DNA from: Candidatus Parcubacteria bacterium
Lineage (GTDB): Bacteria > Patescibacteriota > Minisyncoccia > Phycocordibacterales > PALSA-1337
Direction of reading: 5' to 3'
DNA: 64,000 nt
NCBI GenBank assembly: GCA_963766795.1
Contig: CAVYBN010000009.1
Span: forward strand, 14,740-78,739
In this document: in pieces, positions 14,624-45,949 of the stretch
Position numbering within the stretch: position 1 is the first letter of the stretch
Layout: each line of letters opens with the position of its first letter
The notes under the pieces: model-generated
Database searches by the model: none
Told to the model about the DNA's origin: nothing
Seen by the model: the letters and a program-made list of their open reading frames with translations, nothing else
Program-made: the position numbers and the translations under genes

Positions 14624-15424
14624 ATGTCCGACTACTACAACTTCCGTCGCGATAAGAACCTGTTCGACCCGGCTTCGTCGGAGCCGTTCCGTTGCAGCCG
14701 TTCGAAGATAGACCTGTTCCTGAATTGTCCGCTCTGCTTCTACCTCGATTGCCGTCTAGGCGTCGGTCGGCCGCCCGGCTATCCATTCGCGTTGAACAGC
14801 GCTGTTGACGCGCTCCTGAAGAAAGAATTCGACATACACCGTGCCGCCAAAGCGCCGCACCCCTTGATGGAAGCGTACGGATTGAGAGACGTCATCCCGT
14901 ATGATCACAAGGATCTTGGTCTCTGGCGGCAGAACTTCAAGGGCATCCGTTTCATCCATAAGCCGACCAATCTATTAGTGACCGGCGCCGTTGACGATGT
15001 CTGGGTGGATTCTAAAGGAGAATTGATCATTGTAGATTACAAGTCCACCAGTAAAGAGGAGAAAGTTTCGCTCGACAAGGAATGGCAGATCGGCTACAAG
15101 CGCCAGATGGAAGTCTATCAGTGGCTGTTCCGACAGAACGGCTTCAAGGTCTCTTCGACCGGCTATTTCGTTTATTGTAACGGCAAGACCGACCGCAAGG
15201 CTTTCGACGCCAAGCTCGAATTCGACATCGATCTAATCCCATACAAAGGCGACGCTTCATGGATCGAGAAAGCTCTGGCTGACATCAAAAAATGCTTGTT
15301 GCTCGACAAGCCGCCCAAGCCGGCGCCTCCGCCAGCTGGCGGATGCGATCATTGCAATTACCGGAAAGCGGCGAGGGATGTGCAATCAGAAACTCAAAAG
15401 TCAAAAGGCAAAAGTCAAAAATAG
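14624..15424 (+). CDS. PD-(D/E)XK nuclease family protein (Cas4/RecB-like, Cys-cluster)
   Basis: 266 aa. N-terminal CPLCFYLDC, core GAVDDVW...LIIVDYKST, QMEVYQWL, C-terminal CDHCNY. Confidence 0.7.
   Translation: MSDYYNFRRDKNLFDPASSEPFRCSRSKIDLFLNCPLCFYLDCRLGVGRPPGYPFALNSAVDALLKKEFDIHRAAKAPHPLMEAYGLRDVIPYDHKDLGLWRQNFKGIRFIHKPTNLLVTGAVDDVWVDSKGELIIVDYKSTSKEEKVSLDKEWQIGYKRQMEVYQWLFRQNGFKVSSTGYFVYCNGKTDRKAFDAKLEFDIDLIPYKGDASWIEKALADIKKCLLLDKPPKPAPPPAGGCDHCNYRKAARDVQSETQKSKGKSQK
15328..15343. repeat. 16-bp palindrome TCCGCCAGCTGGCGGA (perfect)
   Basis: Lies inside the PD-(D/E)XK nuclease gene and is read as PPAGG immediately before CDHC. Confidence 0.95.
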
Positions 15425-15594
15425 TTTGTCACCGCATTGCTGTTTCAAAAAGCCGCGCTGTATTTTTACGAACGCGGCTTTCGCACCTGCCAGGCGCCTT
15501 TGGGACGGTCAAAATGGAAGCTTTCCGCGGTGATCACCACATTAAGTGTTAAGGGTTATTCGACGATAACCGCCGTCAGTTTACGCTCTGGCAC

Positions 15595-15646
15595 ATTAAG
15601 AAACCTATAAGAAAAGTTAAAATAATCGTGAAGAAAAGTTAAAATT
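15595..15646 (-). repeat. Family H 52-nt motif (two TTTTAACTTTTCTT units), copy 1, inverted relative to copies 2 and 3
   Basis: The reverse complement equals aattttaacttttcttcacgattattttaacttttcttataggtttcttaat, identical to 51639-51690. Confidence 0.8.
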
Positions 15647-15710
15647 TTCGTGAAGAAAAATACGAAGGCGTAGAGCCATTGTTCTGTCTTCGCTCGCGCG
15701 TATGCCCGCC

Positions 15711-16448
15711 TTAGCGGCCGCGCCGCACCCGCTCGTCAGAAGAAGATCTCCTTAAGCACACGATCTTAGACAGATTCTCGGGCGTATCCAGGACATAGCC
15801 CTGGCCGGGGACGTTGGCGATGAGGTTGGGCTTGTGGCCGATATTGAGCTTGTTCCGGAGGTTGGAGATGTGGGCTTCGACCGTGTTCGAGAAGGGATTG
15901 CCGTCGGCCGTCCAGACGCGCTCCATGAGCTGGGCTCGCGAGAGGATCTTGCCGATATGTCCCATGAAATATTCGAGCATGTGGAATTCCTTGCGGGTGA
16001 GATGGATGACGCGGCCGCCCCTGGTCACCGTGTGGTTGGCCATGTCCGCCGAGAGGTCGTGGATCGTCAGCACCGGATCTTTGACCGTGGCTGTCCGGCG
16101 CGTCACGGCCTCGATCCTGGCGCGCATCTCCTCCAAGGCGAAGGGCTTGGTGATGTAGTCGTCGGCGCCGTTCTTGAAAGCTTTGAGCTTGGTGTCGGTC
16201 TCGCCGTCGACTGACATGAATAGGATCGGCGTGTCCTTGCCGGCCGCGCGGAGCTCTCGGCAGATCGACAGGCCGTCTTTTCTCGGCAGGGAATTGTCGA
16301 GGAGGATGGCGTCGTAGTCGTAGCTCTTGGCCAGGAATAGGGCGTCGGTGCCGTCGCCGGAGATCTCGACAGTGTGAGAAAAAGCGGCCAAGCTGTCCTT
16401 GATGACCGTGGCCATATTCAAGTCGTCTTCGACGATCAAGAATTTCAT
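15711..16448 (-). CDS. OmpR/PhoB-type response regulator (no partner kinase in the window)
   Basis: Receiver domain (FLIVEDD...DAILLDNSLPRKDG...DDYITKPF) plus a winged-helix output (LTRKEFHMLEYF...GQGYVL). The ~25-aa C-terminal tail is encoded by a GC-rich repeat also seen at about 32550. Confidence 0.9.
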   Translation of the reverse strand: MKFLIVEDDLNMATVIKDSLAAFSHTVEISGDGTDALFLAKSYDYDAILLDNSLPRKDGLSICRELRAAGKDTPILFMSVDGETDTKLKAFKNGADDYITKPFALEEMRARIEAVTRRTATVKDPVLTIHDLSADMANHTVTRGGRVIHLTRKEFHMLEYFMGHIGKILSRAQLMERVWTADGNPFSNTVEAHISNLRNKLNIGHKPNLIANVPGQGYVLDTPENLSKIVCLRRSSSDERVRRGR

Positions 16449-43941: not shown

Positions 43942-43980
43942 GATCCAGCAAGGGGCGGTCGTAGGACCGTCCTTTTTCTT

Positions 43981-45294
43981 TCACTTCCCCCAATACTGTT
44001 TCTCGACTTTCTTCATGTAGTCCGGAAGGTCGCACAGTGGAACGGTCTCCTGCGAATAGGTGTCGACGCGGCGGACGATGGCGGTCTTGTCCATGGCCTC
44101 CTTCTTGCCGATGACGATGACATACGGCGTGTGGTATTTCTCGACGGTCGAGACTTGCGCGCCGAGGCGGTCCTTGGCCAAGGACAGCTGGAGCGGGATC
44201 TTAGCCAAGCGCAGCTTCTCAACGATGTCGAGCGACAAGAGCTTGGATTCGAGCCCGAGCTGGACGAACGAGGCGATCGGCCGCTTGATCTTCTTCAGGG
44301 GATCGCGCAAGCCCTTGCCGTTTCCCTTGATCAGGAGCGACAAGCCGACGCCTTGGATGTCTTTCTTGACGCTCAAGCGCTTGGCCAAGCCGTTGTAGCG
44401 CAGGCCGAGAGCCAGGATGCGCTGATGGTCCTTGCCGCTCTTCCCGGTGGGTTCGGCGGCGATGACCGTGAAGATGGTCTCGGTGCAATAGGAGCGGTTG
44501 CCGATGAGCCCGTTATTGACGGCGTACGGGATCTTCAAGGCCTCGAGATATTCGAGGACTTCCTCGAGATGATGCCGGCTGGCTTCCGACAGGAAATCCA
44601 TGGCTCGCGGCGCGCGCTCATTCAAGGCCTTGCAGGCTTCGTCGCGCGACGCCAAGAGCTCGAAGGGATCGCGCTTGAGGAGCTGGCGGCATTCCGGCGT
44701 CATCTCGTTGATGTTCTTGCGGTAATAAGCGATGAGCTCTCGTCCGAAGCGTGCTAGTGAATCGCGGTCGCCGACGCTATTGACCTCCACGCGCGTGTCC
44801 GCGTAGCCTTCGGCGGCGAGCATGGCCCGCCCGGCTTGGATGAGGATGGCTTCGGCGATCGGACCGGAAGATCCGAGGATCTCGAGATCGGCGTAGCGGT
44901 GGCAGGCGCTCTTCCGCCAGCTGGCGGATGCAGCCGAGGCTGGCTTCTCCTGCCTGCCGGCAGGCAGGTTGCAGGCGTACCGGCAGGGATCTTTGAGATA
45001 GATCATGACCGGCTGGGGCATCTCGTGCCAATCCAGCTCATGATAGCTGCGGATCAAGGCGATCTTCTCCTCGACGGACAAGGACAGCTTGCCGTGACGC
45101 TCGGTCTCGTCGTCCACGAAGTCGTCTCCGGCGATGCCGCGCGCGGCCTCGAGATCGGCTTTGACGATGGTCGGGCTCTTCATGGGCGTGAATCCGTAAT
45201 AGGTGGCGATCTCACCGACTTTGTCGAGATATTCGACGGACTGGAGCCTGGACGGTCCGCCGGCAACCCTTTTCTGTTTTGGTTTTGAGCTCAT
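43981..45294 (-). CDS. Histidyl-tRNA synthetase-like class II protein (divergent; may be HisS or a HisZ-like paralogue)
   Basis: Class II HisRS layout with a C-terminal anticodon-binding-like domain (YVIVIGKKE...). GGRYD position reads GLRYNG. The motif-2 loop carries an insertion containing the 16-bp palindrome. Confidence 0.6.
   Translation of the reverse strand: MSSKPKQKRVAGGPSRLQSVEYLDKVGEIATYYGFTPMKSPTIVKADLEAARGIAGDDFVDDETERHGKLSLSVEEKIALIRSYHELDWHEMPQPVMIYLKDPCRYACNLPAGRQEKPASAASASWRKSACHRYADLEILGSSGPIAEAILIQAGRAMLAAEGYADTRVEVNSVGDRDSLARFGRELIAYYRKNINEMTPECRQLLKRDPFELLASRDEACKALNERAPRAMDFLSEASRHHLEEVLEYLEALKIPYAVNNGLIGNRSYCTETIFTVIAAEPTGKSGKDHQRILALGLRYNGLAKRLSVKKDIQGVGLSLLIKGNGKGLRDPLKKIKRPIASFVQLGLESKLLSLDIVEKLRLAKIPLQLSLAKDRLGAQVSTVEKYHTPYVIVIGKKEAMDKTAIVRRVDTYSQETVPLCDLPDYMKKVEKQYWGK
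44913..44928. repeat. 16-bp palindrome TCCGCCAGCTGGCGGA (perfect)
   Basis: Lies in the HisRS-like gene and is read as A-SASWR-K. Confidence 0.95.
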
Positions 45295-45304
45295 GGTTTT
45301 TGTG

Positions 45305-45949
45305 TTACTGATGATAAGCGCCCGGCAAGACGGAGATTTCATTCAATGGAGTGAGACGGACGAGCGGCCGGCCGATGATATTCGCGGCCGGTAGCGGTCC
45401 CCAGGAGCGCGAGTCGGAGCTCTCGGCGCGGTTGTCTCCCATGACGAAATATTGGCCCGCGTCCAGCGTGACGGTCAGGTCATCGTGCGAAGCATGGCTT
45501 GTTTCGATGTATGGCTCGTCGAGCGCGACCGGCGTGGATGAGGCGGCTCCGCCAGCTTGCGGAGCTTCGATCGAGACGGCGCCGTCCTTGATGATCACAG
45601 TCTCGCCCGGAAGCCCGATGATGCGCTTGATGTAGTCTTGGCTGGGGTCGCCTGGGTACTTGAAGACGATGACGTCGTTCCTCTGTGGAGCCTTGAAATC
45701 ATAGGTCAAACGGTCGACCAGCAGGAATTGGCCGGTCGAAAACGTCGGATCCATCGAAGCGCCGATGACTACGAAAGGCTCGATCACGGCGGAACGGATG
45801 ATCCAGGCGACTACCAGCGCGGCCGCCAGCGTCAACGCCCATTCGCGCGCGGCATGCGCTTTGCCGGTTTTCTTTTTGTCGGACGAAGCCTCATTTTTGG
45901 CGGAAATCGGTTGATTGGGAGCGTTTGGAGGAGTGCTTCCGGTTTCCAT
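45305..45949 (-). CDS. lepB: Signal peptidase I
   Basis: VIGASMDPTF (catalytic Ser), YIKRIIGLPGE (Lys box), VMGDNRAESSDSRSWG. Confidence 0.92.
   Translation of the reverse strand: METGSTPPNAPNQPISAKNEASSDKKKTGKAHAAREWALTLAAALVVAWIIRSAVIEPFVVIGASMDPTFSTGQFLLVDRLTYDFKAPQRNDVIVFKYPGDPSQDYIKRIIGLPGETVIIKDGAVSIEAPQAGGAASSTPVALDEPYIETSHASHDDLTVTLDAGQYFVMGDNRAESSDSRSWGPLPAANIIGRPLVRLTPLNEISVLPGAYHQ
45548..45563. repeat. 16-bp palindrome, one-mismatch variant TCCGCCAGCTTGCGGA
   Basis: Lies in lepB and is read as PQAGG. Confidence 0.85.

Follow-up and report, generated by a model that had tools for sequence, protein, structure and literature searches.

How did one and the same 16-bp perfect palindrome, TCCGCCAGCTGGCGGA, come to lie inside a series of unrelated genes, and does it stand there as a functional site, as the trace of a conserved peptide or as a piece of DNA that spreads by itself? 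This question is raised by a 64-kb stretch of DNA, referred to here as the window, from contig CAVYBN010000009.1 of a Candidatus Parcubacteria bacterium, a Paceibacteria-like member of the candidate phyla radiation (CPR). The GC content of the window is ~52%, and the homologues of one protein whose gene carries the palindrome, a HisRS-like protein, were all from Patescibacteria, with labels such as Parcubacteria, Paceibacteria and Taylorbacteria. We show here that the 16-mer is a real, DNA-level, recently expanded palindromic mini-repeat that invades coding sequences in frame.

Copies of the palindrome in the window

A search of the window for TCCGCCAGCTGGCGGA that tolerated up to two mismatches gave five perfect copies, two copies with one mismatch and one copy with two mismatches (Table 1). 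The original prediction, made from the sequence alone, had listed the first seven, and all of these are exactly where it had placed them; the copy at 25902 was absent from that list and is added here. The host genes identified by Pfam are also those that had been named and the peptides PPAGG, PQAGG and SASWR are as stated, with residues 8-13 of GyrB reading DPPAGG. At the same tolerance, 100 dinucleotide-preserving shuffles of the window gave a mean of 0.01 matches, while 300 synonymous-codon shuffles of its coding sequences, in which the protein sequences are unchanged, gave an expectation of 0.007 perfect copies against the five observed. A genome-wide frequency no higher than that in codon-shuffled sequence had been named beforehand as a result that would refute the prediction; within the window, the excess over such sequence is upheld. 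Since both types of shuffle give values close to zero, neither the composition nor the codon usage nor the encoded peptides can account for the number of copies.

It had also been pointed out that every copy lies inside a coding sequence. This is true for all eight copies but is uninformative by itself because ~86% of the window is coding (P ~0.3). What is not random is the placement within the genes: four copies are in C-terminal tails or linkers, one is at codons 8-13 and three are in internal loops or disordered segments, and five of the eight are less than 100 bases from a gene end. The eight copies are read as PPAGG four times, as PQAGG once, as SASWR twice and as LRQSAD once, and thus all three frames are used, which indicates that the conservation is at the DNA level. 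The flanks differ among the copies and the conserved unit is the 16 bp. Folded as a hairpin, the palindrome has a 6-bp stem and a 4-nt loop (UCCGCC-AGCU-GGCGGA) with a predicted RNA energy of -10.2 kcal/mol by itself, reaching -30 kcal/mol when flanks are included. Together the five perfect and three near copies give a density of about one per 8-13 kb, a figure that holds for the 64-kb window only. A second, independent assembly of this organism, from Logan (ERR11593882, locus L121), also contains the copies at 44913 and 45548. In the literature library that was searched, no paper contained CCGCCAGCTGGCGG and nothing relevant was found on palindromes in Patescibacteria.

Table 1. Palindrome copies in the window, their host genes and the peptides that they encode
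Host gene or feature	Gene coordinates (strand)	Palindrome	Match to TCCGCCAGCTGGCGGA	Location and reading
PD-(D/E)XK nuclease	14624-15424 (+)	15328-15343	perfect	C-terminal part, PPPAGG just ahead of CxxC
RpsB	17451-18227 (+)	18161-18176	one mismatch (TCCGCCGGCTGGCGGA)	C-terminal tail beyond the Pfam S2 domain, PPPAGG
GyrB	22117-24300 (+)	22140-22155	perfect	codons 8-13, DPPAGG
Hsp20	25520-26083 (-)	25902-25917	two mismatches (TCCGCCGACTGGCGGA)	N-terminal disordered part, LRQSAD
TsaD	29548-30924 (-)	29586-29601, in hairpin 29577-29610	perfect	C-terminal tail, SASWR
FtsZ	38426-39640 (-)	38492-38507	perfect	C-terminal linker, NPPAGG
HisRS-like	43981-45342 (-)	44913-44928	perfect	motif-2 loop region, SASWR
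Companion 20-bp perfect palindrome CCTGCCTGCCGGCAGGCAGG		44949-44968		same insertion as the 44913 copy and 20 bases from it, LPAGRQE
LepB	45305-45949 (-)	45548-45563	one mismatch (TCCGCCAGCTTGCGGA)	internal loop, PQAGG

Filled and empty sites in the nearest relatives

Two contigs from the nearest relatives were used to compare filled with empty sites. The first (L258; 6.7 kb; DNA identity 81-86%, with 96% protein identity at the GyrB N-terminus) covers gyrB, hsp20 and the tsaD tail, and the second (L122; 10 kb; ~80% protein identity) covers lepB, the HisRS-like gene and ftsZ. The comparison thus extends to six of the eight copies, those in the nuclease gene and in rpsB lying beyond it. All six are missing from the relatives, where the sites are intact and empty, and the filled and empty forms differ by 0, +9, +12, +15 and +24 bases. 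With up to four mismatches allowed, no copy was found in the gyrB, hsp20 and tsaD-tail region of L258, nor, with up to three allowed, in the lepB, ftsZ and HisRS-like genes of L122.

In gyrB the window reads AAAAAAGA-TCCGCCAGCTGGCGGA-AAAACCGG (DPPAG) where L258 reads AAAAAAGA-ACTAAAAAAGACCGGC-AAAACCGG (ELKKT), and because the flanks are nearly identical in L258 the gain, which is of zero net length, is a replacement of 16 bases by 16. Among 69 N-terminal GyrB sequences of related Paceibacteria, not one contained PPAGG. The copy in hsp20 is part of a 24-base block, GCCATCCGCCGACTGGCGGAGCGG (25898-25921), that is found in the window and not in L258 (net +24). In ftsZ, AAG AAT CCG CCA GCT GGC GGA AAG GCC of the window corresponds to AAA AAA GAC TCG AAA GCC of L122 (net +9), so that the 16-mer stands where L122 has ~7 other bases, and lepB of the window has five codons (CCG CAA GCT GGC GGA) in addition to those of L122 (net +15). 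The HisRS-like gene carries an insertion of ~18 residues, made of the 16-mer and the companion palindrome, against a short loop in 48 orthologues: the consensus KDPCR-GA-TKK-PG-CHRYADLE is KDPCR-YACNLPAGRQEKPASAASASWRKSA-CHRYADLE in the window. At the site of the companion palindrome L122 has a 12-bp core only, CCTGCCGGCAGG. The 16-mer and the 20-bp palindrome are also adjacent to each other in a contig from Saccharibacteria (L019).

The site in the tsaD tail is of a different kind. Here the window reads CGCCCGGA-[16-mer]-A-CCGGGCG-TTTTGG and L258 reads CGCCCGGA-TAAG-TCCGGGCG-TTTTGG (net +12), and the 16-mer occupies the loop of an older hairpin with an 8-bp stem, followed by TTTTGG, that is already present in L258. 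The resulting hairpin is 120 bases downstream of a convergent gene (28510-29457, plus strand) and has a predicted RNA fold energy of -30.1 kcal/mol. This copy therefore belongs also to a terminator-like structure for the convergent gene. It is the only copy with a long stem and TTTTGG, the other seven being without a T-run, and a terminator scan made no call there.

Taken together, the 16-mer replaces 16, ~7, ~5 or ~1 target bases with a net change of 0 to +24 that is always a multiple of three. No target-site duplication was found at any filled-versus-empty pair, the target bases having been replaced rather than duplicated. These comparisons show that this genome recently acquired the same 16 bases at many places that are unrelated to one another.

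The palindrome in related Paceibacteria

For a wider sample, 80 loci of related Paceibacteria (0.94 Mb) were gathered by way of the HisRS-like gene, and the sample is for that reason not biased toward the motif. It contained one perfect copy and two copies of a one-mismatch variant, TCCGCCAGTTGGCGGA. This density is far over chance and yet ~50 times below that of the window. The single perfect copy, in gyrA of L167, provides the cleanest pair of a filled and an empty site: the sequence is GAT-CCGCCA-GCT-GGCGGA-GAT in L167 and GAT-GCT-GAA/GAT in ~28 orthologues (net +12), whose proteins, that of the window's own gyrA included, read PKNKK(D/E)-A(E/D)GLSL. The left flank of this copy, AAAAAAGA, is the same as the left flank of the gyrB copy in the window. 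The variant, in which a central C is changed to T, was found in two different relatives (L136 at 3497 and L171 at 2738); as a speculation, a recurrent C-to-T change at the centre of CAGCTG would fit deamination of a methylated cytosine.

In the 0.94 Mb of related DNA, PPAGG was encoded by other codons only once. This, together with the six empty sites, bears out the proposal that the conservation is of DNA and not of a peptide. The further proposal of a short insertion tolerated in frame holds in so far as the gains are in length-variable segments, as the GyrA pair illustrates, but no discrete block of 15-18 bp was gained, the net change ranging from 0 to +24. What the related sequences indicate is a recent burst of the 16-mer in this lineage and not a lineage-wide signature.

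Occurrence in other phyla

Sporadic occurrences of the identical sequence extend to other phyla, and there it prefers to cap hairpins that already existed or to form peripheral helices in genes for structured RNAs. One genome per species was scanned and at least 120 loci were collected; the counts in this paragraph are among the matches listed, and the taxonomic shares are indicative only. By record title, ~41 loci were from CPR of many classes, ~33 from Bacteroidota, including an isolate, Mucilaginibacter flavidus (L055), seven from unclassified low-GC bins, four from Cloacimonadota, two from Elusimicrobia and ~31 from high-GC taxa. The xRQLAx frame leads in high-GC genomes (36 of 58 coding sites), and the copies there are ordinary helix-coding DNA that we treated as background. 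A GC-rich 16-mer in genomes of 24-53% GC cannot be background. Two to five copies each, at up to two mismatches, were present in 21 loci from low-GC genomes, and about half of the low-GC sites are in open reading frames (ORFs) of at least 150 codons; in genomes of up to 53% GC, 47 of the 65 copies within such ORFs are in the PPAGG frame. This bias is what selection would leave after frame-blind insertion, Pro-Pro-Ala-Gly-Gly being suited to loops and SASWR and xRQLAx being less generally tolerated. At least five extra stem base pairs were found at 13 of 105 low-GC sites, compared with 1.6 in permuted controls, and the stems of the longer hairpins that the 16-mer caps differ between sites. Viral contigs, considered as a possible vector, gave 57 matches, mostly high-GC coding matches in the xRQLAx frame, with a few low-GC hairpin contexts and one phage contig with three copies.

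Three RNase P RNAs of Bacteroidota (L073 4274-4680, L070 2699-3091 and L092 480-873), which reach 241-270 bits (gathering score, 100), have peripheral helices that are exactly the 16-mer hairpin, namely, P3 and P12 in L073, P12 in L070 and P9 in L092. Apart from these helices, no Rfam family was found at the motif. Elsewhere the loops of other families of repeats have the 16-mer within them (L171, L024, L052, L055, L065 and L069), and in L045 and L084 the 16-mer caps terminator-like hairpins that are followed by T-runs. In other CPR it forms in-frame loop insertions in glutamate dehydrogenase (L034) and methionine aminopeptidase (L104), with 6-9 residues more than in the solved structures. In many loci of CPR and Bacteroidota, A-rich repeats similar to those in the AT-rich spacer blocks of the window adjoin the 16-mer, some of them inside coding sequence (L034, L104, L112 and L083).

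Genes for tRNA are another context. Partial 5' tRNA copies with the 16-mer in or beside the D-arm lie just upstream of an intact tRNA in L062 (2095-2560), L057 (3985-4196) and L022 (1041-1300), the intact tRNAs being Asn, Lys and Arg. In L062 the 16-mer is within the D-loop of pseudo-tRNA fragments and in L057 it replaces 8 bases of the pseudo-tRNA copy. Two such fragments in L062 flank a gene for an 88-residue GIY-YIG protein, and the fragment in L057 is followed by what remains of a GIY-YIG-like ORF. Contexts of this kind suggest that a small nuclease cassette was inserted at tRNA genes.

Comparison with known repeats and recognition sequences

Rickettsia palindromic elements (RPE) are inserted in frame in unrelated housekeeping genes, encode peptides that the protein fold tolerates and vary in presence between close relatives (PMC10969869). 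The 16-mer is like them in its in-frame gain in unrelated housekeeping genes and in being present or absent between relatives. On the other hand, RPE measure ~100-150 bp, are translated into a conserved peptide of 30-50 residues and occur only in Rickettsia and its allies, whereas the 16-mer has 16 bp, encodes ~5 residues and crosses phyla. Ogata et al. in 2000 reportedly described RPE in RNA genes as well. RPE carry a CGTC tag (PMC3733652), which the 16-mer does not have.

Repetitive extragenic palindromic (REP) sequences and REPINs resemble the 16-mer in being short, GC-rich hairpin repeats. REPs inside genes have been described, many in genes that serve replication or repair (PMC3733652), and the presence of the 16-mer inside gyrB and gyrA is similar. 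The abundance of REPs varies between strains, and their families are normally lineage-specific and not shared across phyla as the 16-mer is. A REP is an imperfect palindrome of 20-40 bp with a GTAG (or CGTC) tag, mainly extragenic and linked to a REP-associated tyrosine transposase (RAYT) of the Y1 type, whereas the 16-mer is perfect, 16 bp long and without GTAG or CGTC in itself or its flanks, is within coding sequence in all eight cases in the window and is not linked to a Y1 gene. Miniature inverted-repeat transposable elements have terminal inverted repeats, target-site duplications and a length of 50-500 bp; the 16-mer makes no target-site duplication. Yeast mitochondrial GC clusters and the PstI palindromes of Neurospora are short, GC-rich palindromic modules with restriction-site cores in AT-richer genomes. 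The fungal mitochondrial GC clusters insert beside and inside one another, in genes and in rRNA, but are 30-50 bp long, organellar and not shared between distant lineages.

Among sequences that are read by proteins, HIP1 (GCGATCGC) of cyanobacteria is an over-represented perfect palindrome that occurs in coding sequence in several frames and has a core of the restriction or methylation type (PMC5861425, PMC4390886). It was to HIP1-type palindromes or uptake sequences that the original prediction had likened the 16-mer, and this likeness does not hold: there is one perfect copy in the 80 related loci and none in the relatives of 81-86% identity, the density is one per 8-13 kb, and copies occur in distant phyla. 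HIP1 has 8 bp, is present about once per gene throughout its phylum and is linked to an orphan methyltransferase, while the 16-mer is ~10 times rarer, is missing in close relatives and is found in other phyla. The methyltransferase genes of the window at 24306-25088 and 57035-57571 match small-molecule or RNA families and not DNA methyltransferases. Uptake sequences of the USS and DUS type are oriented, non-palindromic 9-12-mers that occur about once per kb across a group of species, and the 16-mer has none of these features. The parS and Noc sites are 16-bp perfect palindromes in few, clustered copies, often in genes; the 16-mer is dissimilar to TGTTNCACGTGAAACA, and parS sites are kept in relatives near the origin whereas the 16-mer sites are missing in relatives and present in RNA-gene helices of other phyla. 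The 16-mer is different from all described families in being 16 bp long, perfect, untagged, without target-site duplication, variable in what it replaces and identical across phyla.

Origin of the copies

On balance we think it probable that TCCGCCAGCTGGCGGA is a self-propagating, DNA-level palindromic repeat of the REP or RPE kind that is reduced to a bare hairpin. A palindromic selfish repeat is preferred to a recognition signature because identical DNA stands at unrelated sites, the gain is lineage-specific and recent and the distribution across phyla is sporadic with local bursts, and also because the positions taken in proteins and RNA genes are tolerant ones and the 16-mer is nested in other hairpins. 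The window copies themselves are probably carried along neutrally and do not serve as functional sites. New copies would arise by a short-patch copy-and-paste event, either an insertion or a conversion, for which another copy or a small hairpin or duplex intermediate would be the template. A trans-acting enzyme that reads this exact hairpin may catalyse or trigger the event, and if so this would be the reason why the sequence stays identical across phyla. The putative targets are the single-stranded loops of DNA hairpins and A-rich tracts, and purifying selection would then purge all insertions except those that are in frame and structurally harmless.

Candidates for such an enzyme are a single-strand hairpin transposase (HUH/Y1) and the small GIY-YIG nucleases beside three copies outside the window. 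All three of the confident GIY-YIG ORFs in 0.8 Mb of loci are within 0-121 bases of a copy, which is suggestive, and we regard this link as a lead and not as a conclusion. A more far-reaching possibility, which we consider doubtful, is that there is an undescribed pasting system whose enzyme is specific for this hairpin, that inserts or converts the palindrome in hairpin loops and A-rich tracts, moves between CPR, Bacteroidota, Cloacimonadota and Elusimicrobia, and remodels both essential proteins, by PPAGG loops, and structured RNAs, at RNase P helices and the D-loops of tRNA genes. If this were the case, the 16-mer would be the smallest mobile DNA element known and its mechanism would be unlike that of transposases that act on inverted-repeat ends. 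Other sources were considered and rejected. An origin from back-to-back ends of the IS1595 copy in the window does not fit, its 31-bp inverted repeats being unrelated to the 16-mer; a link to cassettes for 23S-rRNA-intervening-sequence proteins is not consistent, there being three such ORFs only in all loci; and a longer shared element around the 16-mer is not apparent, since the enrichment of k-mers in the flanks is family-specific only and the flank consensus, Y-N-(A/C), is weak.

Several results weigh against a self-propagating repeat. The mobilising enzyme was not found in the window or in the collected loci, and GIY-YIG genes adjoin only three of ~110 low-GC sites. Mobilisation by the Y1 (RAYT-like) transposase of the window was rejected: this gene is flanked by a different palindrome and has homologues in five relatives without the 16-mer. 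Classical transposition is not indicated, because target sites are not duplicated and the length of the insertion is not fixed, and to our knowledge 16 bp is shorter than any element that has been shown to be mobile. All eight copies fall in 15.3-45.6 kb of the window, with none in 1-15327 or 45564-64000; this clustering within 30 kb has a P of ~0.025 under a uniform model and could mean a local function. That five of the eight copies are perfect is compatible with recency or with constraint, and the taxonomic enrichment, taken from at least 120 loci at one genome per species, is indicative only.

Clustering in a core-gene region that includes gyrB and ftsZ and the perfection of five copies would be explained if the 16-mer were a functional recognition site, for a CAGCTG methyltransferase or restriction enzyme, for a nucleoid or segregation protein of the parS or NBS type, or for uptake, that accumulates by selection. 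A perfect 16-bp palindrome is the format of parS and Noc sites, an exact sequence kept across phyla is expected of a site that is read by a protein, and TCCGCCAGTTGGCGGA in two relatives could reflect deamination of a methylated central C. We nevertheless find a recognition site unlikely, as no copy is at the same sites in relatives of 81-86% DNA or ~80% protein identity, unlike what is seen with parS, HIP1 and uptake sequences. The density is 10 times below that of HIP1 or uptake sequences, no DNA methyltransferase, ParB or restriction gene was found among the window genes scanned against Pfam, and RNase P helices, pseudo-tRNA D-loops and unrelated hairpin tips in other phyla are left unexplained. 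A parS-like centromere cluster in particular was rejected: the window has no canonical parS, the best parS-like match having three mismatches, which is at chance level, and to this are added the sites missing in relatives and the motif in RNA genes of other phyla. A second alternative is a very stable stem-loop that is selected in RNA and reused in structured RNAs; it could stabilise mRNA 3' ends, cap terminators, signal processing or bind a protein. The predicted hairpin energy, the five copies close to gene ends, the RNase P peripheral helices, the T-run caps in L045 and L084 and the hairpin with TTTTGG downstream of the convergent gene are all in line with this, and for the tsaD-tail copy an RNA-level role is plausible. 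As an explanation for the 16-mer in general it is quite improbable: most window copies have no T-run, three (hsp20, the HisRS-like gene and lepB) are gene-internal, the terminator scan made no call even at 29577-29610, where L258 already has a hairpin without the 16-mer, no Rfam family matches the element itself, and a role in stability does not need one exact sequence across phyla.

Two further explanations do without any element or signal. Hairpin-templated (template-switch) mutation could perfect quasi-palindromes in place and converge on a favoured sequence; the palindrome at 44949 resembles a symmetric extension of the 12-bp core in L122, the ancestral GCT codon in gyrA of L167 is exactly central in the new palindrome, and the gyrB copy is a same-length replacement. 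Such a mutation copies local sequence, however, and cannot give one and the same 16-mer at eight unrelated sites of the window and at over 100 sites in other phyla, and the empty sites bear no likeness to the motif, which makes this independent origin very improbable. Scarcely credible is a functional peptide, PPAGG or SASWR, conserved as such, or an artefact of assembly or sequencing. PPAGG is the dominant reading, but the orthologues do not have it, it is almost absent with other codons, and the DNA itself is translated in three different frames and is present in non-coding RNA genes as well. The frameshifted gyrA and ftsA show that the assembly of the window may be imperfect; against an artefact, the independent assembly reproduces two copies, the motif is also in an isolate genome (L055) and in assemblies from many studies, and every gain keeps the reading frame.

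Other repeats and genes of the window

The genome is visibly permissive for palindromic elements. A gene for an IS200-like Y1 transposase (51735-52295; Pfam Y1_Tnp) has palindromes with GTAG, GAGGTCGGACCTACGTAGGTCGGACCT, on both sides (51592-52310), among them a perfect 30-bp palindrome at 52277-52306, and close homologues of this Y1 gene are in five related contigs. The region 51592-52310 has the architecture of a RAYT/REP unit, in a CPR genome. An inverted pair of the GTAG family, GAGGTCGGACCTC...AGGTCCGACCTCGG, is in frame in tsaD (30555-30605, minus strand), where it encodes FSEVGPRGHPDGGPTSE, and further copies of this family are at ~47144, 47214 and 59607. A third hairpin family, GTCATCCCCGCGAAAGCGGGGATCCAG, is found in spacers at 3238-3264, 46000-46026, 53037-53063 and ~59045; related 'GTCATTCCCGC...GGGAATC' hairpins are present in other CPR contigs and the one in L171 holds the 16-mer variant in its loop. 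AT-rich spacer blocks of degenerate short repeats (AAATCTCAAATTCCAAAGATCAAATTCC, for example) at 26161-26371 and 29458-29554 are missing in L258. There is also a complete element of the IS1595 family (ISXO2-like) at 49353-50338 with perfect 31-bp terminal inverted repeats, AGAGGTATCCCCGCACGGCCTAATTTGCTGA.

A gene for a 23S-rRNA-intervening-sequence protein (four-helix-bundle, bAvd-like; 38022-38414, minus strand), bracketed by AGATTCA heptamers (38005-38425), starts 12 bases past the ftsZ stop and ~70 bases from the copy at 38492, and L122 does not have such a gene there. Between gyrB and hsp20 is a gene for a class-I S-adenosylmethionine methyltransferase (24306-25088) that is absent from L258, where hsp20 is directly after gyrB. 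The gyrA gene (53213-55767) is in at least six frame segments, with five frameshifts, and ftsA (40502-41682) is in three, while gyrB, ftsZ and most others are intact; this is either a local assembly error or a decay of essential genes. A DUF3800 gene (16648-17289, minus strand) is beside a match to the Rfam DUF3800-IX RNA (16576-16642; 51.6 bits, gathering score 36.8). The window also has four consecutive genes of a type IV secretion system pilin family (PF18895; 58879-61220) and two MazF/PemK toxin genes (42560-42976 and 56457-56849).

Implications

The surprising features of the 16-mer are its minimal size and its identity across phyla, RNase P RNA helices included. For annotation, the PPAGG and SASWR segments should not be taken for conserved motifs, and gains of the 16-mer explain one type of short indel in alignments of CPR proteins as well as odd RNase P RNA helices. 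The exact 16-mer, or NPPAGG encoded by CCGCCAGCTGGCGGA, could be used as a searchable marker for horizontal exchange between CPR and other phyla and for finding the enzyme. If the 16-mer is indeed a mobile element, the lower size limit of mobile DNA would drop to a bare 16-bp hairpin. Selfish DNA would then be remodelling essential genes (gyrB, gyrA, ftsZ, lepB, rpsB and tsaD) of reduced CPR genomes as it does in Rickettsia and, unlike the Rickettsia case, the element would be one that CPR have in common with free-living Bacteroidota.

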